DNA of 64,000 nucleotides, taken from contig JAWOEX010000035.1 in NCBI GenBank assembly GCA_046482545.1, positions 32,001 to 96,000 on the forward strand, read 5' to 3'. The notes under the pieces are model-generated. The model searched no databases. It was not told where the DNA came from and saw nothing but the letters and a program-made list of their open reading frames with translations. Positions 27,766 to 63,779 of the stretch are shown one piece after another; positions within the stretch are counted from its first letter, which is position 1, and every line of letters begins with the position of its first letter. Both the position numbers and the translations under genes were made by a program. Source of the stretch: Candidatus Thorarchaeota archaeon (GTDB lineage: Archaea; Asgardarchaeota; Thorarchaeia; Thorarchaeales; Thorarchaeaceae).

Positions 27766-27781
27766 TAGAACACGTGTTCTA
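27766..27781. promoter_or_regulatory. Perfect 16-bp palindrome TAGAACACGTGTTCTA, putative operator
   Basis: Intergenic, between divergent tRNA-Pro and HDAC genes; variants at 61229, 61569 and 61784. Confidence 0.55.
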
Positions 27782-36838: not shown

Positions 36839-38035
36839 CTATTCATTCAGGAAATCGAGTAAAAATGCTTCTAGCATTCCTGCGGGTACATCTGATAGAC
36901 CAATTAGCGTTGTCTGTCCCCGTTGTCCTTCCCCGGATCGCTTTGTATCAATCACGCCATGTGCATTCAGGTCTTGAACCCACTCCCAAACTTGGGTATG
37001 AGATCGGGGATCTTCATCATACTCTTCACAAACTGTTCGGTACATCTCTTCCACTTCACCCATTGTCACATATGCACTCCGTACTTCCTTCAGTTGGCGC
37101 GCTGCTGCCAGCAGCAAAAGCTTGTTTTGTAGGGGAAGAGTTGAGAAAACCTCCTTTCGTAGCTCCGGATGTGTATCAGCTTTGGCCTTTCGTACGAAAT
37201 CAGGTATCACAACACCAGAACGTTCCGTATCAGCCTGCTTGCCAGCACGCCAGAGAATCTCTATGGCATATCTTGCATCACCACATCCAGAGGCTATGTC
37301 AGAAATGACCTGAAGGGTCTCCTCCATGACAGCATTGTCCTTGAAAGCCATCTCTGATCGCTGACTGATAATGTCATAGAGTGCTTCTGAATTGTACTTC
37401 TCAAAGCGTAGAATATTACGCTGCAAAGTACTAAGTGTACTAGAATCAAAGATGGAGTCATCTAGAGGTATGTCCCGACCAATACCAATTATCGAAAGTC
37501 GTTGGGGAGAATTGAGACGATCGTCATTCAATCGAGTCAAGTCGTAGACTATACTCCCACCTTTTTGGGTTATGAAGTAGTCGAGCTCATCGAGGATAAG
37601 TAGAAGATACCTGTCTTCAGAATCAAGGACATCCATTATTAATTGAAGAAGCTCTTCAGGTGAATGTCCTCTTCGAGGAAATTTTGGCTTGAATTCCTTG
37701 AGAATCCGTAAATAGACCAAGTATTTGCTCTTGTTTACCCTGCAATTCACATGGATTTTGTGTAGATGAATATTTCTTCTTCTTGCAGCACGTATCATTT
37801 GTTCTGCAAAGCGTTTTGCAACGGCCGTCTTTCCTGTACCAACGGGACCTTCAATTATGAATTTGTGACTCGTTTTTCCGGGCGACGTTATCAGGGTTTT
37901 GAAACTACGAGCTAGCCTTCGAAGCTCATTTTCTCGATGAGGGAGGGTCTCTGGTACATAGTCAATCGATAGATATTGCTCCGATTCGAATACTGTATGT
38001 CTACTTAGCTCGTCTTCAACAAAATCTAGCGGCAT
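36839..38035 (-). CDS. cdc6: Orc1/Cdc6 replication initiator
   Basis: DYVPE.LPHRE, GPVGTGKT, LDELD, GDAR.AI, C-terminal winged helix with RGQTT. Confidence 0.95.
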   Translation of the reverse strand: MPLDFVEDELSRHTVFESEQYLSIDYVPETLPHRENELRRLARSFKTLITSPGKTSHKFIIEGPVGTGKTAVAKRFAEQMIRAARRRNIHLHKIHVNCRVNKSKYLVYLRILKEFKPKFPRRGHSPEELLQLIMDVLDSEDRYLLLILDELDYFITQKGGSIVYDLTRLNDDRLNSPQRLSIIGIGRDIPLDDSIFDSSTLSTLQRNILRFEKYNSEALYDIISQRSEMAFKDNAVMEETLQVISDIASGCGDARYAIEILWRAGKQADTERSGVVIPDFVRKAKADTHPELRKEVFSTLPLQNKLLLLAAARQLKEVRSAYVTMGEVEEMYRTVCEEYDEDPRSHTQVWEWVQDLNAHGVIDTKRSGEGQRGQTTLIGLSDVPAGMLEAFLLDFLNE

Positions 38036-38251
38036 TACAGTCAGGAGACGCCGGGGCGCCAGTGCTTAAAAGCATTTTGAAGTTTATACGTTTAATCGTA
38101 TACTGGCATAGGAGGTGGGCGAAAGTATTGGTGGCGAGTTCCTCACTCAAGATCCATATCATCGTCGTACAGACTCATTGGGGTCATAACAGTCATCACT
38201 CGCCTACTAAATGGCAGAGATAACTCCCTTAAAGGTGACGAAGAACGAAAA

Positions 38252-38352
38252 TGGTGCGGCCGCCGGGATTTGAATTCCCGCGGAAAAGCTATTTCCGTCT
38301 CGGGTCGGAAGCTTGGGAAGCTTCAGTCCTAACCATGCTAGACCACGGCCGC
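38252..38352 (-). tRNA. tRNA-Gly(CCC), CCA encoded, with 24-nt BHB intron at 53/54 (intron 38275-38298)
   Basis: Acceptor GCGGCCG/CGGCCGC, anticodon arm GAAGC-TTCCCAA-GCTTC; central helix CCCG/CGGG with AGA and AAT bulges. Confidence 0.92.
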
Positions 38353-38649
38353 CAAAACGGGAAAACTTGGAATCATGATAAAAGCGTATCGAAAAACACC
38401 CGGCAATGGAGATAGATTTGAGGTAACGAGAACCCTACAAATGTAAGATAGAGAATATCAGAATTTGACGTTGAGCCTAGAGAAATAGAAATCTTACAGA
38501 ATCCTAAATAAATCGGTACATAGAAGTGTAGGATTTCTGTAAGATTCCCTGCTACTTCGTGTAGAAGACAGACCATCGTGTATGCACCAATTCGATATCC
38601 TACCCGCATAGTAGGGGTCTAGCCACCTACATTGAGTGTGTAGACTGTG

Positions 38650-39200: not shown

Positions 39201-40274
39201 CGAGAAAGCTGCCTGCACGAGCTTGATTACTCCCCAGAAAGTCCGGGAGATTCGGTACTTCGTGCAGGAAGACAAGGTCGAACGCATCAAGGGGCTCGAT
39301 AATCTCGTCGCACAACTCCAGCATGAAATACATGCCCGGAAAAACAGTGCAAACCTCACGATGACGTAGCAGCAAGGCTACGGAAGCTAAAGGGCAAGCG
39401 CTATCGAGTGGCAAAGGAGTGCGACCGGTTTCTTGTCAGACAGATACTCGATTACATCACCGAGCTGCCTGAGCAATACGCCCTCTAGGTAGCTATCGGC
39501 CGGCTCAAGAACATCCGGCATACTGCTCGACGCGGCAACTACAAGGAGCGCAGGTTCCGGGGTATGATACACTCTTGGGCCTTCGCACGCATCACCAAGA
39601 GTCTCAAGCACAATCTCGAGCAACTTGGCTGGCCGGTTGAAGGTAAGGATGCACGGTTCCAAGTGGTACCGGAGAACTGGACCTCGATTATGTACTGGGA
39701 GTGCGGTAACAAGGGCAGGAGACCAAGGCAGGACCGCTTTACTGTCCGAGCTGTGGCAACCGGTGCAATGCAAACAGGAACGGGTCTATCAACATCGTAG
39801 GACGCCTCATTACGCTCACTTCATCTTTGTATGACCTGAAAGGAATAGGCAAGTGGGCTAGCGCAGTAGCGCGACGCGCTCGGCCGAAAGCCCGAGGAAC
39901 GTCTTCGACTTCTCGACGGAAGTCCTTACTTTCCAAACAAGTATATCATCAGGCTCTGGAGAGTCCGCGGCTGTTCACTATGTCCAGATGGACCTCCTCA
40001 GCTACGGCGACTGAGTTGAGGTAGGGAATCATGACCACGCCGTGGTAAAAACTGTGGAAGACCTCGCTGTTGCTAGGAGTGATGACCCGGAATGATGACA
40101 GGAGAAAGAAGGCAGGACCGCGGGAGGAATCCCATTCCGATGAACGTGGACAGAGCCTCAGCTGACCCGAGGGGCCATTGGGTAGCCTTGGGGGCGGTGA
40201 CGCTGGCAGGAGAAGGGTGGAACACAGAGGTTTCCTCAGTTGGATTCACTCACTCAACTGGAAGAACGGGTTAT
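39197..40274 (+). mobile_element. tnpB: Decayed TnpB (IS200/IS605- or IS607-type) element: RuvC half plus right end
   Basis: Across frameshifts (~39350, ~39740) and a TAG (39486): GIEKAAC..., VAIGRLKNI, HSWAFARI, VPENWTSIMYWECG, YCPSCG, NANRNGSINI; then the conserved right-end repeat ending GGTTAT. Confidence 0.85.
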
Positions 40275-57367: not shown

Positions 57368-57802
57368 ATTCACACTATTTACGTATATTCACATCATAAA
57401 CATGTGAATGGCGCCAAGACTGTGAACAGCCATTGGTGAAAGGCACGGATATAGTTCTAAGAAGTAAATGGAGCACCCATAACTCTGCTTACTTATGTGA
57501 ATAAGGCCACCCCTTCGTTTCCACTGGAAAACAGCCACGAGCATTATGAAGTACTGTTATGGCTATTCACAAACCAGATAGCAAAGTGAATACTGGAACG
57601 ATTGGAGAAAACTGCGTAATATGCTATAGAAAGCCTATGACGGTTTTTCAATACTCATAGAGTGCTATAAGAGGTTATTTAACCATTTATATGGGAGCAG
57701 AAGGTTTTTGATGGGTATTTTGCGTTATACGACTACTATGCAGATATATACGATTCACATACTCACACTTATTTGCAGAGGATAGTGGGATAATGTGAAT
57801 CG
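57368..57802. repeat. Intergenic array of ATTCACA/TGTGAAT motifs around one ORB box
   Basis: Exact copies at 57368, 57387, 57403, 57496, 57565, 57753, 57794 plus variants. Confidence 0.7.
57509..57529 (-). promoter_or_regulatory. Origin recognition box (ORB)
   Basis: TTCCAGTGGAAACGAAGGGGT matches the archaeal ORB consensus including the G-string. Confidence 0.75.
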
Positions 57803-57841: not shown

Positions 57842-58471
57842 GTGATTAATTTGGAGAAGAGCGAGCGAACAAATTATGTGTACGAATTCACTTATAGCTC
57901 TGGCCCAGGTTCAAGGGAGATTTTTGAATGTAAATATGTTCAGCCAGATGAAGCTCTTAATCGGTTCAAGAAAATACTGAGACTGACAGAAAGGCCATTT
58001 GATTTCAAGATACTTGTTCATGACGAGGCTACCGGAGAAGAATCCAGTTTTCAGATAAGGGGTTCCGTGGATGAAATGTTCGAGAAATTCAAGGTATTCC
58101 TCGAGACAAGTACGGGTTATGAATTCCGTGCAAAAGAAGCAGCACAAGAATCGATACCCAGTGAAATTGAGTTCGATTCGATGAGTAATTTCGAAAAGAT
58201 GCAAATGATTATCTATGCGTCCTTTAAACACGGAAAATTCTCGTCATTGGATGTTGCAGAAATCTATGAGAGCACATTTAATGACAAAATGCCAAAGAGT
58301 ACTGCCTCAACATATCTTGCGAGAATGTGGGATGAAGGCAATGGTGATCTCGAAAGGTATGGGAATCGCACAGGATACACATACAGACTCAGAACTGAAT
58401 TGAATCAAGTTCAAAACGATATTAAGAAAGCTGAGAAGATTCTTTCTACGTTCCAAATTCACAGCGAATAG
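57842..58471 (+). CDS. Hypothetical protein with C-terminal winged helix
   Basis: FSSLDVAEIY......PKSTASTYLARM...G.LER.G....Y.Y. Confidence 0.7.
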   Translation: MINLEKSERTNYVYEFTYSSGPGSREIFECKYVQPDEALNRFKKILRLTERPFDFKILVHDEATGEESSFQIRGSVDEMFEKFKVFLETSTGYEFRAKEAAQESIPSEIEFDSMSNFEKMQMIIYASFKHGKFSSLDVAEIYESTFNDKMPKSTASTYLARMWDEGNGDLERYGNRTGYTYRLRTELNQVQNDIKKAEKILSTFQIHSE

Positions 58472-58501: not shown

Positions 58502-59818
58502 CTATAGTTTCTTCCGTTGTTCATCAAATTCGATATTGTGTTTCTTCAATTGTTTCAAAATTGGTTCGTATATCTCGGGAATAGTCGGGCGAAACACACC
58601 ACTAAGATTGATTTTTCCCTGTAATATCATATGGCTGGCAATGGCCACCGGAAGAGCAACGGTCCTAGACATGGAAGAATCGCCACCGGGATGACCATAG
58701 TCAATTAGTGTGGATGTTATTTTTTCTTTCTCACCATCAAATTCAACAAGAAATTGGTGGCGCATCACTATCATGTCTCGCTCATTGGGTGCGTATTGGA
58801 GTTTCTCCTCGAATAGGTGACACAAGGCATCTAGTGGGGTTGTAGTGCCTGTGGGAATACGTGTATTTTCAAACAGACCAAGCCATTGTAGCCTGTCTAG
58901 GACGGGACTGTCCATCGGTAAGTCGGCAGATTTACTAACACTAAATCTTATACCTTCTTGATTTGAATTAATTAAATCCATGATCAGTTCTTCATAGGTC
59001 ATTTCATCCATGTCTCTTTCTTCAAGACTAAGGAGACCTAAATCAAAAATCGCCTTTAGCGTCTTGCACCACCCAGGATATCGGAGTGTCCCGCGGATCA
59101 TAGTGTTTGTCTCCGGAATGGAATAAATGTCAATGTAAGAGAGACTGTCTCTATTAGGATACCCTTCAAAAGTGCCCAGTCCTTGAATCTGCATTTGTTT
59201 GCACGTTCCGAAGAGTTCAGAAGCAGGGATGTGGACTTCTTCACCTTCGCGGAGGAAACGGGCATCGTTTGTCCCGGCGAGTAGAACACCTCTGGGACTC
59301 CAAGAAAGCTTGTAGCCAAAAGGATTGTCGTTAGCATCAGGGGCGGGCAAGCCACCTGTATAAGAAGTGAAGCTCTGGATTTTGCCATCTTGAGCGTGAA
59401 CCTGATCGATGATTTTCTTAGCGCTCATATGGTCTATGCCAGGATCTACACCACATTCATTCAATAGAATCACACCGGCTTCTTTCGCTTGCTCATCGAG
59501 AGCCCACATTTCATTAGATATGTATGAAGTGGTGCAGAAAGGGGTTTCATACTCTATTGCTATTTCTGCAGCCTGTACATGGTACGTGTAGGGCAAAAGA
59601 GAGCAAACTAGGTCAGCATTTGAGACCATTCTATCGAGCATTTGATGGTCGGTTTTGATGTTGAATTCTCGGGCTGCAGCATTATCATGCCCACTAACCA
59701 AGTTCACAGCTTTTTCTTTTGTTCTGCTAGCTACAATTAGGTTGTAACCGTGGTTACATAGATAGTCAACATAGGGCTTGGCAACAAGACCGGCACCTAA
59801 ACATAAGATTTCTTTCAT
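58502..59818 (-). CDS. Saccharopine dehydrogenase (glutamate-forming; Lys9/AASS-SDH-like)
   Basis: GAGLVA, SLLPY..H, ECGVDPGIDHM, GGLPAP, YK.SWSPRG, YPNRDS, RGTLRY. Confidence 0.9.
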   Translation of the reverse strand: MKEILCLGAGLVAKPYVDYLCNHGYNLIVASRTKEKAVNLVSGHDNAAAREFNIKTDHQMLDRMVSNADLVCSLLPYTYHVQAAEIAIEYETPFCTTSYISNEMWALDEQAKEAGVILLNECGVDPGIDHMSAKKIIDQVHAQDGKIQSFTSYTGGLPAPDANDNPFGYKLSWSPRGVLLAGTNDARFLREGEEVHIPASELFGTCKQMQIQGLGTFEGYPNRDSLSYIDIYSIPETNTMIRGTLRYPGWCKTLKAIFDLGLLSLEERDMDEMTYEELIMDLINSNQEGIRFSVSKSADLPMDSPVLDRLQWLGLFENTRIPTGTTTPLDALCHLFEEKLQYAPNERDMIVMRHQFLVEFDGEKEKITSTLIDYGHPGGDSSMSRTVALPVAIASHMILQGKINLSGVFRPTIPEIYEPILKQLKKHNIEFDEQRKKL

Positions 59819-59820
59819 TT

Positions 59821-61149
59821 TTATTCCTCCTTTAGATGATCCTTCAAATATTTGTATTGATCTGTTAGATTCCCTCTGTAAACAATGATAGCGTCCTTAA
59901 GCTCACGAGGAAGTTGGAGCTCACTATAGGATGTCGAAAAGTCAGTTGAAGCAAGGGGTGGGATAAAGGGGAGTAAGGTTTCGCTGAAGGAATATGAAGA
60001 TTCCTTGGGCAATTCTGCAGGCAGATTATCCACTGCAACTACGACAGGACCGTCTCCATCTACATCATGGATAATTCTATCGTCTTCTACAACGTATGTG
60101 AAAGCGGGGTTGTTCGGTTTAGTCGATGTTTCAGTGATTTCTATTCCCCCGTTTATATCACATGATATATCCCCAACAATCCTAAGTTTACGGTGACTAT
60201 CACTCCAATGTCGTTTGATGAACTCTTTTGTCAGAAGGCGAGGATACTTTTGACTCCAATATATGCAATTCATCAGAATCGTAAGGTGTGGTACGTAATG
60301 ATGGAATATACCTTCATAGGCTTCAGACCCCTTCTTGTAATAATCCTCTAAGTCAAACTCAGCGGTCTCAGCTATCGGTTTGACCATATGTTCTTCCTTG
60401 AAAACACACTTGTAGATTGTATGTTCCAGGGGTTCCAGATTACCCAAATCGCTTGGATTTACCTCTTTGTGTGGAAGAATGTCAAAAAGCTTCTGTGCTC
60501 CTGAAGAAACATTTCCATAACCTGCAAAACCAACTACAAACGGGAGTGTGGACTTGGGAAGACCCTGATCTTGTATTCGGCCAGCTAATTTGTTGAATTC
60601 GTTCTGTAAATCGTCGAGTCCGTCGCACTCAAGTGTTGGCTTAAGGTCGAGGAATGGGTTTCGATGGATTGCTTCGTATTTGAGTCGCTGGCCAAGCACT
60701 CGTAGTGTATCAGATATGCCAGCCATCCCGGCCCAGTTTCCAAAATAAACAAGACGAGCCCCGTTATCATCGACAATCAATTCATAGTCAAGAAGCGTTG
60801 CTCCAGTTTCAATTATGTGTCTGAGCATAGGCATATTATGTTCTTGACCTTTGATAGTATGACTGAAGTAGACATAGACTTTATCAGATTCGAAAATGGA
60901 GTTGGGCATTTCTTTGAGACCCAGAATAATCGATGCGTTGCCTCCCTTCACAGTAGAAATGGTAGCTCCAGCATTCTTGTATTCTTTGTCGCTGAAAATC
61001 CTTTGATTACTAGGTTCCACAACGAAGTTGATTCCTTCATCATCGATTAGTTTAGCTACATGTTCAGGAACTAGGGGGGTTCTAGCTTCGAAAGCTTTCT
61101 CTTCTTTGCGAATAGCGAAGATAACCATGTACTCACCCGCTTCCAACAA
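59821..61149 (-). CDS. Lysine-ketoglutarate reductase (AASS-LKR-like)
   Basis: E.RTPLVP, FSHTIKGQ..NM, DYE, GYGNVS.GA, DISCD, VDNLP.ELP. Confidence 0.85.
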   Translation of the reverse strand: MLEAGEYMVIFAIRKEEKAFEARTPLVPEHVAKLIDDEGINFVVEPSNQRIFSDKEYKNAGATISTVKGGNASIILGLKEMPNSIFESDKVYVYFSHTIKGQEHNMPMLRHIIETGATLLDYELIVDDNGARLVYFGNWAGMAGISDTLRVLGQRLKYEAIHRNPFLDLKPTLECDGLDDLQNEFNKLAGRIQDQGLPKSTLPFVVGFAGYGNVSSGAQKLFDILPHKEVNPSDLGNLEPLEHTIYKCVFKEEHMVKPIAETAEFDLEDYYKKGSEAYEGIFHHYVPHLTILMNCIYWSQKYPRLLTKEFIKRHWSDSHRKLRIVGDISCDINGGIEITETSTKPNNPAFTYVVEDDRIIHDVDGDGPVVVAVDNLPAELPKESSYSFSETLLPFIPPLASTDFSTSYSELQLPRELKDAIIVYRGNLTDQYKYLKDHLKEE

Positions 61150-61263
61150 ATCTTGCGGTCTACGGCATGTCGGCAGTTACAGTGATTTAACATTTTCCTC
61201 TCAATAACATAATACAGAACTTGAAATTTAGAACATGTGTTCCGGATGTTTGGATGAAATCAA

Positions 61264-61560
61264 ATGAGGTGGTTTTTGTTTCTATATGATTGCAACAGTT
61301 CGAAGGAAATGAATTCAAGAAGGGTTTCTTTTACAAAAAAATTGTATGGTTACAAATATAGATGGAACACGAAAGAAGGCTATAAGGAACAGAAAAAAAG
61401 TGGACTATTAGATTCGTGTATTGGAGCAAACAGAGTCAATGATTCCGCAATATTGATACCCGAAAATTGCTACGAAGAATGTCTGGATCTATTTCTCGAA
61501 TTTCAGGCTATACTACAATTCAGAGTATTTGAAGTGGTGAGAGAAATAGACAAACTGTAA
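61264..61560 (+). CDS. Small hypothetical protein, possible ferredoxin-like (Cas2/VapD-like) fold
   Basis: LFLYD...RR..F.KKLYGY...GLL......SAILIP. Confidence 0.55.
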   Translation: MRWFLFLYDCNSSKEMNSRRVSFTKKLYGYKYRWNTKEGYKEQKKSGLLDSCIGANRVNDSAILIPENCYEECLDLFLEFQAILQFRVFEVVREIDKL

Positions 61561-61568
61561 CAGGATTG

Positions 61569-61798
61569 GTTACACGTGTTCTAATGTTTGTATAACCCCC
61601 TTGTTTCAACTAGAAAAAATAAGAAGAAATGTGAAGGAATATGAGAAAGTATATATATAGGTTAGTGCATATTAATTCATCTGCATTTTTTAAAAGCATA
61701 GACAACAAATATTGGCTACTCCATTTTTTTAGTTCCAATGGAAATAGAGGGGAGTTAGGTACATATTACGTGTATTACAAATATAGAACACGTGTAAC
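61569..61798. promoter_or_regulatory. Candidate replication origin: inverted ORBs flanking an AT-rich unwinding element
   Basis: ORB TTCTAGTTGAAACAAGGGGG (-, 61596-61615) and TTCCAATGGAAATAGAGGGG (+, 61733-61752); AT-rich core; outer perfect 15-bp inverted repeat. Confidence 0.72.
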
Positions 61799-61886: not shown

Positions 61887-63779
61887 TTGACAAAAGTAAA
61901 CCGGCTATTGAAAGACACACCTGGAAAGAAAGTCCTCTTGCTTGCTAATGAAGCCATTGCCAGAGGAGTTCTCGAAGCTGGAGTCCGACTGGTAGCGCTA
62001 TACCCCGGAACTCCTAGCAGCGAGATTGGAAATAATCTCACTAAAATGGCCCCACATATTGAAAACTTCTATTTTGAATTTAGTTCAAACGAGAAGGTAG
62101 CTTTAGAAGTAGCAGGAGCTGCTGCAATCTCCGGGTCTCGATCGATGATGGTTTGTAAAGGACCTGGCCTGAATGTTGCAGCTGATCCATTTTTCTCGTT
62201 GGCATATGTGGGTGTTCGAGCTGGCATGGTCATCGTTGTAGCCGACGATCCAAGCATGTGGAGTTCACAAAATGAGAATGACTCAAGATACTACGCCCTA
62301 ATGGGCAATATGCCAATGGTCGAACCTGCTGATCCTATTGAAGCAAAAGACATGCTTCACAAGGCCTATGAGTACTCTGAACGTCTTGATTTACCTTTCC
62401 TTCTTCGTACCACTACTCGTGTCAATCATACGCGTGCTCCAATAACCTACGATGAAATCCAAAATCGCCCTGAAACGGTATCATTCGAAAAAGATCCCTA
62501 TCGTTTTGTTCCTGTTCCGGCTGTAGCGAGGAAAAGACATCTTTGGCTTTTGGACCAAATCCAGAAAGCAGAAGAAATCTCCAATTCTTCAGACCTGAAC
62601 TTCTTCCACGGTGATGGTGAACTGGGTATACTCACTAGTGGCGTTTCGTATAACTATGTTCTCGAAGCTCTGTCGACGATGGACCTTGAAGCTGAGATAC
62701 TCAAGATTGGAATGTCACATCCTGTTCCTGATCAGAAGATTAAACAGATTCTTAGTCGGCATGGACGGGTAATTGTCGTTGAGGAGCTTCAACCCTTTTT
62801 GGAAACTCATGCCCGAAGAATTGCACATTTAGAAGGAGTTGATGTAGACATTCTAGGAAAAGAACAGGGCTACTTCCCAGAAGTATACGAATACAGTCCA
62901 AAAATTGTAATGAAAGCACTATCTAAAATCACGAATCAGCAACCGCCCGTTAATTGGGACGAAATTGACCATACCAAGAGCAAGCTGCCGGAACTTCCCC
63001 CCCGTCCACCCCTTTTGTGTCCCGGTTGTCCTCATCGAGCAACCTACTATGCAATTCGGACAGCTACTAGGGGAAAGGCTATCTATCCTTCAGACATTGG
63101 TTGCTATACACTAAGCATTTCCCCTCCATTAGAAACAGCTGACATCCTGTTTGATATGGGGTCCTCAATCACTACTGCTTGTGGAATTGCTCGTGTAACT
63201 GATCAGGATGTTGTCGCTTCTATAGGTGATAGTACTTTCTTTGCTTCTGGTTTACCTGGTATTGCAAATGCTGTTTATAATCAACACCCAATAGCTCTGG
63301 TTGTATTGGACAATCGCACTACTGCTATGACAGGACATCAGCCCCATCCTGGAACCGGTTTAACCGGCATGGGTGAACAGGTACCGCCACTAGATATAGA
63401 GAAAGTTTGCGAGGGTTTGGGTGTTCAATATCTGCAAACAGTTGACCCCTTTGGGTCACTTGCCAATCTTGTAGCAAGCATTAGAGAGATGTTGGATTGG
63501 GTACGTGAAAATCAAGCACCTGCGGTAATGATTTCAAAAGCCCCTTGTGCACTTCTCACAGCCGCAGAACGGAGAAAGACTGGAGACTATCCTTTACCGT
63601 ATTACATTGATGAAGAGATTTGTACAGGATGTAAACGATGTCTCAATCGGTTATCTTGTCCTGCTATGTATTTCGATTCAGAAATCGGGAAAGCAGCAAT
63701 CGACCAGAACCTCTGCAATTTCTGTGGGACTTGTGTAGATGTATGTCCTGTTGCAGCAATTATGCAGAAGGAGGAATAG
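61887..63779 (+). CDS. iorA: Indolepyruvate:ferredoxin oxidoreductase alpha subunit
   Basis: NEAIARG, YPGTPSSE, NEKVALE, CPGCPH, DIGCY, GDSTF, C-terminal 2x[4Fe-4S]. Confidence 0.95.
   Translation: MTKVNRLLKDTPGKKVLLLANEAIARGVLEAGVRLVALYPGTPSSEIGNNLTKMAPHIENFYFEFSSNEKVALEVAGAAAISGSRSMMVCKGPGLNVAADPFFSLAYVGVRAGMVIVVADDPSMWSSQNENDSRYYALMGNMPMVEPADPIEAKDMLHKAYEYSERLDLPFLLRTTTRVNHTRAPITYDEIQNRPETVSFEKDPYRFVPVPAVARKRHLWLLDQIQKAEEISNSSDLNFFHGDGELGILTSGVSYNYVLEALSTMDLEAEILKIGMSHPVPDQKIKQILSRHGRVIVVEELQPFLETHARRIAHLEGVDVDILGKEQGYFPEVYEYSPKIVMKALSKITNQQPPVNWDEIDHTKSKLPELPPRPPLLCPGCPHRATYYAIRTATRGKAIYPSDIGCYTLSISPPLETADILFDMGSSITTACGIARVTDQDVVASIGDSTFFASGLPGIANAVYNQHPIALVVLDNRTTAMTGHQPHPGTGLTGMGEQVPPLDIEKVCEGLGVQYLQTVDPFGSLANLVASIREMLDWVRENQAPAVMISKAPCALLTAAERRKTGDYPLPYYIDEEICTGCKRCLNRLSCPAMYFDSEIGKAAIDQNLCNFCGTCVDVCPVAAIMQKEE

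Follow-up and report, generated by a model that had tools for sequence, protein, structure and literature searches.

A probable chromosomal replication origin at a conserved inverted ORB pair remote from cdc6 in Thorarchaeota

The ORB pair, its AT-rich spacer and the neighboring array

The window analyzed here is a stretch of 64,000 nucleotides, positions 32001-96000 of contig C28, from the genome of a Candidatus Thorarchaeota archaeon (G000; 45-contig MAG of 3.05 Mb, 98.9% complete), and coordinates refer to this window unless a contig is named. The locus of interest is situated in a 326-bp intergenic region between orf98 (61264-61560, plus strand), a small gene encoding a Cas2-like (ferredoxin-fold) protein of 98 amino acids, and iorA (61887-63779). 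This region harbors ORB-L (TTCTAGTTGAAACAAGGGGG, 61596-61615, minus strand), composed of a mini-ORB dyad and a G-string, and ORB-R (TTCCAATGGAAATAGAGGGG, 61733-61752, plus strand), both scoring 28.4 bits and both with the G-string directed away from the AT-rich DNA between them. The original prediction had described two inverted ORB-consensus boxes with outward G-strings around about 115 bp of AT-rich DNA, and precisely this arrangement was recovered, with a spacer of 117 bp (61616-61732) and 74.4% AT as the predicted duplex unwinding element (DUE). Only 0.023% of genome windows match the AT richness of this spacer (mean 54.6%, SD 4.7, in windows of equal size), and the 50-mers of lowest stability within it (-51.8 to -53.9 kcal/mol) fall outside the 99.9th percentile of the genome. 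The occurrence of one- and two-base indels between congeners identifies the spacer as non-coding. Within the genus, the two ORBs, the TATATATATA centre and the two arms of the enclosing inverted repeat described below do not vary, versus an overall identity of 72-75% to each congener; ORB-L is conserved within the genus and the family, and ORB-R is invariant across three species of the genus. The mini-ORB core, TTCCAGTGGAAAC, which is followed by the G-string, is identical to that of the published euryarchaeal ORB consensus, GTTCCAGTGGAAAC-AAA----GGGGG (PMC1868953). The family ORB consensus obtained from our weight matrix is TTTCCAgTGGAAAcgAAGGGGTGT.

The candidate origin region turned out to be larger than originally noted. 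A third, canonical ORB (TTCCAGTGGAAACGAAGGGG, 57510-57529, minus strand), which at 38.3 bits is the top-scoring site of the genome, was placed in the 545-bp intergenic region between glmS and hyp209, separated from the ORB pair by four genes. Around it lie seven TGTGAAT/ATTCACA motifs, which form an array (57368-57800) together with GGCGCC and a GATTCACATACTCACACTTATTTG box. The third ORB was conserved in all 12 aligned loci, representing at least eight genera, and the TGTGAAT motifs are kept column by column across genera. Their cluster is the densest in the genome, with 7 copies in 600 bp versus a background of 0.19 per kb. A second TGTGAAT cluster, on contig C16, falls within an epimerase-like coding sequence and was dismissed as a chance occurrence. 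No RNA gene was detected in either intergenic region by Rfam at gathering thresholds or by ARAGORN.

The protein-coding neighbors of these sites are conserved but poorly characterized; neither hyp209 nor orf98 had a Pfam match, even at E = 0.01. hyp209 (57842-58471, plus strand) encodes a protein conserved next to the origin, in which an alpha/beta domain at the N-terminus is followed by a winged helix at the C-terminus. Its structural model (pLDDT 77.7) matched winged helices of the MarR/PadR/RosR type with E values of about 0.005-0.02. As the Foldseek matches were generic winged-helix proteins, with the Cdt1 C-terminal domain only one among many weak ones, we do not assign hyp209 to WhiP or Cdt1. 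The AlphaFold model of the orf98 product (pLDDT 92.8) shows a Cas2-like ferredoxin fold with a hairpin insertion, and its best compact structural matches were Cas2 proteins (TM about 0.5, rmsd 3.6-4.0 A). Since a word-indexed homolog search yielded only four proteins, orf98 homologs were taken from syntenic loci by tblastn, and synteny places orf98 with the ORB pair in several Asgard families. Saccharopine-dehydrogenase-like and AlaDH/PNT-like genes on the minus strand (58502-61149) lie between hyp209 and orf98 in the Thorarchaeota family; they seem to have entered the origin region by insertion, considering their absence from the compact cassettes of G025, G026, G128, and G030, which are described below.

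Flanking and dispersed copies of a palindrome

The ORBs had been reported to be enclosed by a perfect 15-bp inverted repeat, and its arms, GTTACACGTGTTCTA (61569-61583) and TAGAACACGTGTAAC (61784-61798), are indeed 100% complementary, with 200 nt between them. Both arms contain ACACGTGT and represent two copies of a dispersed palindrome, AGAACAYRTGTTCY. The left one is a half-degenerate copy (GAACACGTGTAAC) located just past the orf98 stop codon, and the right one precedes the iorA start codon by about 96 bp. In other genera, the copies on either side of the origin core are complete palindromes; the 15-bp inverted repeat of the Thorarchaeota genus is thus explained by a change of the outer half of each palindrome to GTAAC in mirror fashion. 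A third copy, GAACATGTGTTC (61231-61242), lies between the divergent orf98 and AlaDH-like genes, and in nearly all genera a third palindrome was found about 320-340 bp from the pair on the orf98 side.

Conservation of the intergenic motifs upstream of iorA in relatives had been proposed as a check on the origin assignment, and the ORBs together with the flanking repeat were found to be kept in at least 13 genera of the family and in two other families. The order palindrome, ORB on the minus strand, about 143 bp, ORB on the plus strand, palindrome was present in 20 fetched loci, which represent at least 13 genera, and the order orf98 stop codon, palindrome, ORB recurs in families f2 (G025) and f7 (G030 and G040). 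The palindrome has a narrower distribution than hyp209 and orf98.

In G000, the extended palindrome, (T)TTAGAACACGTGTTCYAAA, was located at about 10 intergenic positions, preceding start codons by 29-211 bp. The genes near these sites encode an FTR1 permease, a radical SAM enzyme, a pyridine-nucleotide-disulphide oxidoreductase, MetRS, and a histone-deacetylase-like (HDAC-like) protein, in addition to iorA and the divergent orf98/AlaDH-like pair, and have no obvious common function. The copy at the HDAC-like gene, GAACACGTGTTC (27768-27779), is located 94 bp upstream of it. In seven genomes from six genera (G010, G016, G007, G022, G004, G011, and G019) a palindrome was found about 30 kb from the single ORB, matching the HDAC-like site of G000 in position. 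All 24 sampled family genomes contained AGAACAYRTGTTCY, with 1-21 strand matches per genome versus 0-2 for the control. Such recurrence of one palindrome at several intergenic sites upstream of genes, kept in relatives, is what a regulon would show, and the palindrome is probably an operator common to the origin core and a set of promoters, bound by a dimeric DNA-binding regulator whose putative target at these sites is AGAACACGTGTTCT. The earlier proposal of an extra protein-binding site at the origin is supported by the conservation of the repeat around the ORB pair, but the site is not origin specific, given its roughly 10 occurrences per genome. Two known systems were considered and rejected. 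A ParB-parS centromere does not fit the neighboring genes, and no match to ParB_N (PF02195) was found in the 98.9% complete genome. An SOS operator of the LexA/Cheo-box type (GAAC-N4-GTTC) is at odds with neighbors that are not DNA repair genes, and the LexA DNA-binding domain (PF01726) likewise had no match in G000.

A further repeat, the heptad doublet ATATTAC-GT-GTATTAC (61763-61778), is situated between ORB-R and the right palindrome and is conserved in the genus. When the genome was searched for GTAWTAC-N2-GTAWTAC with at most one mismatch, 13 of the 14 doublets fell on C28 at 86-115 kb (window positions 54339-83346), mostly to the right of the ORB pair. This field of doublets looks like an origin-proximal, centromere-like element.

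Conservation of the ORBs and their separation from cdc6

The strict ORB pattern had three matches in 3.05 Mb, all inside 4.3 kb. A weight matrix trained on 55 ORBs of relatives, with G000 excluded, gave these sites 38.3, 28.4, and 28.4 bits, and no other site in the genome surpassed 16.9 bits. The scatter of ORB-like 20-mers at similar scores that would have spoken against an origin was therefore not seen. At the level of the family, the fixed pattern TCYANTKGAAAYNNRGGGG matched 65 of 81 genomes, usually at two to three sites, and the reversed pattern, used as a control, matched none of the 81. The usual layout comprises a minus/plus ORB pair 142-148 bp apart and one ORB 4.1-4.3 kb off. The sites are thus few per genome and their position is kept among relatives, as is characteristic of an ORB-type oriC.

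Most mapped archaeal origins are defined in part by an initiator gene next to them. G000 has two cdc6 genes, both on C28, and neither is found beside the ORBs. The gene that had been noticed originally, 23 kb from the ORB pair and lacking an ORB beside it, is the paralog cdc6-2 (36839-38035, minus strand); its distance is 19.5 kb to the single ORB and 23.6 kb to the pair, and both the strict pattern and the weight matrix agree that no ORB adjoins it. The second gene, cdc6-1 (C28:30131-31396), lies outside the window, just before its start, about 58-62 kb from the ORBs, and is adjoined by a convergent DP1 gene. Upstream of cdc6-2, we observed a GC-rich stretch resembling an intron-containing tRNA on the minus strand (38240-38360), not called by Rfam or ARAGORN, and a zinc-finger stretch similar to a TnpB/IS605-type remnant (39400-39900). 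In five other genera, a distance of about 20-21 kb separates cdc6-2 from the single ORB, and cdc6-1 is found 60-150 kb away, implying that the separation of the ORBs from cdc6 is old within the family. The absence of an initiator gene beside the ORBs throughout the Thorarchaeota family counts against reading them as an origin.

In other Asgard families, however, canonical ORB pairs directly adjoin a cdc6-1 ortholog. The encoded proteins are 49-61% identical to Cdc6-1 and only 28-32% identical to Cdc6-2. Seven genomes (G025, G026, G029, G099, G128, G030, and G040) possess a compact cassette in which cdc6-1, the winged-helix gene hyp209, and the ORBs are brought together, with hyp209 adjoining cdc6-1 in each, so that at the orthologous locus the initiator gene does stand beside the ORBs. 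orf98 is part of five of the seven cassettes, and tblastn detected no homolog of it in the fetched stretches of G029 and G099. DP1 is found beside cdc6-1 in G025, G026, and G128. The gene order in G025 is DP1, cdc6-1, eight TGTGAAT copies with an ORB, hyp209, orf98, palindrome, degenerate ORB, DUE, ORB, palindrome, iorA, which places the TGTGAAT copies between cdc6-1 and the winged-helix gene. In G026, a closed genome of 1.42 Mb, the order is orf98, ORB, ORB, hyp209, cdc6-1, DP1; the cassettes of G029 and G099 are similar except for the undetected orf98, and those of G128, G030, and G040 are similar with orf98 present.

Because the same ORBs and the same small genes stand beside cdc6-1 in these families, we consider the ORB pair of the window an ortholog of a cdc6-adjacent origin, and its separation from cdc6 a derived condition of the Thorarchaeota family. 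The cognate initiator is most likely Cdc6-1 rather than Cdc6-2, judging from its orthology to the gene beside the same ORBs elsewhere. The original description of a candidate oriC far from cdc6 was correct as to the distance; it is now better understood as a family-specific rearrangement in which the likelier initiator gene is one outside the window and not the cdc6 gene first noticed. Comparison of gene orders suggests that a single inversion of about 59 kb, from cdc6-1 to glmS, would restore the order of G025 and account for the separation. The third ORB (57510) formerly stood close to cdc6-1 and corresponds to the cdc6-1-adjacent ORB of other Asgard lineages; its present role is probably that of an accessory or regulatory site for the initiator. 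Directly upstream of cdc6-1 itself, two inverted mini-ORB dyads without G-string, GTTCCACTGGAAAT and GTTCCTATGGAAAC, were observed (C28:30084-30120; L001 8084-8120), and a similar pair of dyads occurs in G011 (G011:C2, about 443320-443352). These are probably autoregulatory sites that stayed with the gene after the rearrangement.

Replication polarity and readings of the locus

Cumulative skew had been proposed as a check on the origin assignment, and its raw form was of no help. In the window, on C28, and in G075, raw sliding-window and cumulative GC skew tracked the local gene strand and gave no clean extremum, and it was strand-corrected GC3 skew and gene orientation that switched at the locus. 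The single 2.58-Mb "contig" of G075 is a joined scaffold (4400 N in 400 kb sampled) with a gene order unfit for chromosome-scale use, and it was excluded; in G026, plus-strand third-position skew was confounded by gene orientation and was replaced by a comparison of leading and lagging genes within each strand. Presumed leading and lagging genes differed in GC3 skew on C28 (-0.003 versus 0.106; Mann-Whitney p = 2e-9) and in G011 (0.026 versus 0.077; p = 2e-4). A change-point scan that made no assumption on the locus placed the switch on C28 at 95 kb, the ORB pair being at 93.6-93.75 kb, with a V-shaped profile and a residual sum of squares reduced from 2.21 to 1.75; in G011 it gave a flat minimum at 355-390 kb. 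With respect to gene orientation, the cumulative plus-strand minus minus-strand coding content of G011:C2 (180001-580000; 400 kb, no N) had its global minimum at 380-390 kb, with the ORBs at 378-382 kb, and the corresponding minimum on C28 was a plateau from 60 to 110 kb. In G026 (20 points of 20 kb), co-orientation peaked at 0.599 with the origin placed at 580-640 kb (1 of 20 rotations), and the ORB pair of this genome is located at 622.7 kb. None of these polarity tests resolves finer than 5-10 kb, a scale at which the ORB pair and the 57.5-kb array are inseparable.

Replication polarity thus switches at the site, but with inverted skew: in contrast to the bacterial rule, it is C that is enriched in the leading strand, which becomes visible only when genes are split by strand. 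By bacterial convention, the sign of the GC3 skew, with the plus strand turning from G-rich to C-rich across the locus, would be that of a replication terminus. We consider a terminus very improbable, since ORBs, cdc6-1, and DP1 to our knowledge mark origins in every archaeon studied. Moreover, genes are directed away from the locus on both sides, a co-orientation expected at an origin, and inverted GC skew has been published for haloarchaea (PMC1868953); from these two observations we conclude that the locus is an origin and not a terminus. A mobile element bounded by the 15-bp inverted repeat, or a cruciform formed by it, in place of a protein-binding site, is still less probable, to the point of being nearly negligible. 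The perfection of the repeat and the 200-bp spacing would suit such an element; yet the palindrome also occurs singly at about seven other intergenic sites, each arm is itself a full palindrome in other genera, the enclosed ORB module is syntenic across the family, and no transposase gene lies between the arms.

Two further explanations were considered. In the first, replication would start at the 57.3-57.85 kb array under the action of the adjacent winged-helix protein, as at oriC3 with WhiP, and the pair at 61.6 kb would be a separate origin or a regulatory Cdc6 site. The array contains the top-scoring ORB of the genome, its TGTGAAT cluster has no equal in the genome and is kept across genera, a conserved winged-helix gene follows directly downstream, and the polarity switch is unable to separate sites 4 kb apart. 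We nevertheless regard initiation at the array as unlikely: its ORB is alone, without an inverted partner, its least stable 50-mer (-55.5 kcal/mol) is a weaker candidate for unwinding than that at 61.6 kb (-51.8 kcal/mol), and it is the close inverted ORB pair with an AT-rich spacer that is common to all Asgard cassettes examined, including those of G026 and G030, which lack TGTGAAT arrays. Alternatively, the ORBs could be transcriptional operators only, at which Orc1/Cdc6 paralogs repress iorA, orf98, and hyp209, in a relic origin that no longer fires. The location of the ORBs in promoter regions and the missing initiator gene would be in keeping with this, as would the growth of some archaea without their origins (PMC5663688, PMC11005403). 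A relic would be expected to decay, however, whereas the exact geometry of the pair and the extreme AT spacer are kept in 65 of 81 genomes, and present-day strand asymmetry and the switch in gene orientation are centered on the locus, which makes loss of origin function improbable.

On balance, the chromosome of this Thorarchaeota archaeon very probably has its replication origin in this intergenic stretch, in line with the earlier proposal of an Asgard origin: the ORB pair and its DUE occur only once in the genome, and the pair recurs in 65 of the 81 family genomes, is orthologous to cdc6-adjacent pairs, and coincides with the switch in polarity. The more specific joint reading, to which we assign a probability of roughly 0.8, is that 61596-61752 forms the core of the chromosomal oriC, that the initiator is likely Cdc6-1, encoded by a gene that has moved away, and that the core is flanked by palindromic operators. 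By analogy with the origins of Sulfolobus, Aeropyrum, and Pyrococcus, one Orc1/Cdc6 monomer would bind each inverted ORB, with the winged-helix side facing the 117-bp AT-rich element, at which MCM would be loaded and the DNA would melt. A rearrangement would have put the cdc6-1/DP1 block about 58-62 kb from the ORBs in the Thorarchaeota family. The flanking palindrome, present in the promoter regions of iorA and orf98, would most likely tie origin firing or incoming transcription to the state of a regulator.

It is tempting to speculate further that there was an ancestral multi-part Asgard cassette, comprising Cdc6-1, the winged-helix and Cas2-like proteins, the ORB pair with its DUE, and an extra ORB, and that in the Thorarchaeota family and some relatives a regulator clamps both sides of the DUE, gating initiation or shielding it from transcription, with the moved initiator acting in trans. 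We put this forward tentatively and with more doubt than confidence; if true, it would represent a cell cycle or metabolic checkpoint at the origin, undescribed in archaea.

In the literature searched, we found no earlier definition of an ORB/DUE origin core for Asgard archaea. In archaeal oriC1-type origins, such as Pyrococcus abyssi oriC, Sulfolobus oriC1, and Haloferax oriC1, ORBs surround a DUE beside cdc6/orc1. The Thorarchaeota locus shares with these the mini-ORB core with G-string, the inverted arrangement of the ORBs around an AT-rich DUE and, in other Asgard families, adjacency of the module to cdc6; the linkage of DP1 to cdc6-1 is likewise found in Pyrococcus and Haloferax. It differs in the distance of the initiator gene (20 kb for cdc6-2 or about 58-62 kb for cdc6-1), in a G-string that follows the dyad after only 3 nt, in the spread of three ORBs over 4.2 kb, in a second kind of palindrome flanking the core, and in its inverted skew. 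It is a classical ORB/DUE core with three variant features, namely, a family-wide separation from the initiator, a third ORB 4.2 kb off in a second array, and a flanking dispersed operator.

Global regulators bind inside bacterial origins, such as CtrA at Caulobacter Cori and Fis, IHF, and ArcA at E. coli oriC. The occurrence of the same short palindrome at the origin core and at scattered promoters resembles these cases by analogy only, as they belong to another domain of life and the regulator proposed here is a predicted one. The winged-helix gene beside an origin-type repeat array recalls Sulfolobus oriC3 and WhiP (reviewed in PMC4010727), although hyp209 has one winged helix and an unrelated N-terminal domain. 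C-enrichment of the leading strand is a feature in common with the inverted skew of haloarchaea (PMC1868953), in a different lineage and with a signal that requires strand separation.

A concrete oriC with exact candidate sites provides targets for work on Cdc6 and MCM and a reference for coverage-based estimates of the growth rate of Thorarchaeota in sediments. It also draws attention to conserved origin-associated genes, those for the winged-helix and Cas2-like proteins, across several Asgard families. The long maintenance of ORB geometry after loss of linkage to the initiator offers a natural test of action in trans, which shows whether such linkage is needed, and the flanking palindromes are a candidate regulatory input at an archaeal origin, of which few have been described.

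As the assembly is a 45-contig MAG, further origins elsewhere are possible, though no other ORB-like site in it exceeds 17 bits. Some family genomes (G021, G084, G052, and G074) carry a fourth ORB (TCCATTGGAAAC...GGGG), with no counterpart above 17 bits in G000. The one in G021 (L076 7203-7361; G021:C1:185201-185360) is located 140 bp from a palindrome and near GGCGCC and GTGAAT motifs, and this locus could be a second origin-like site.
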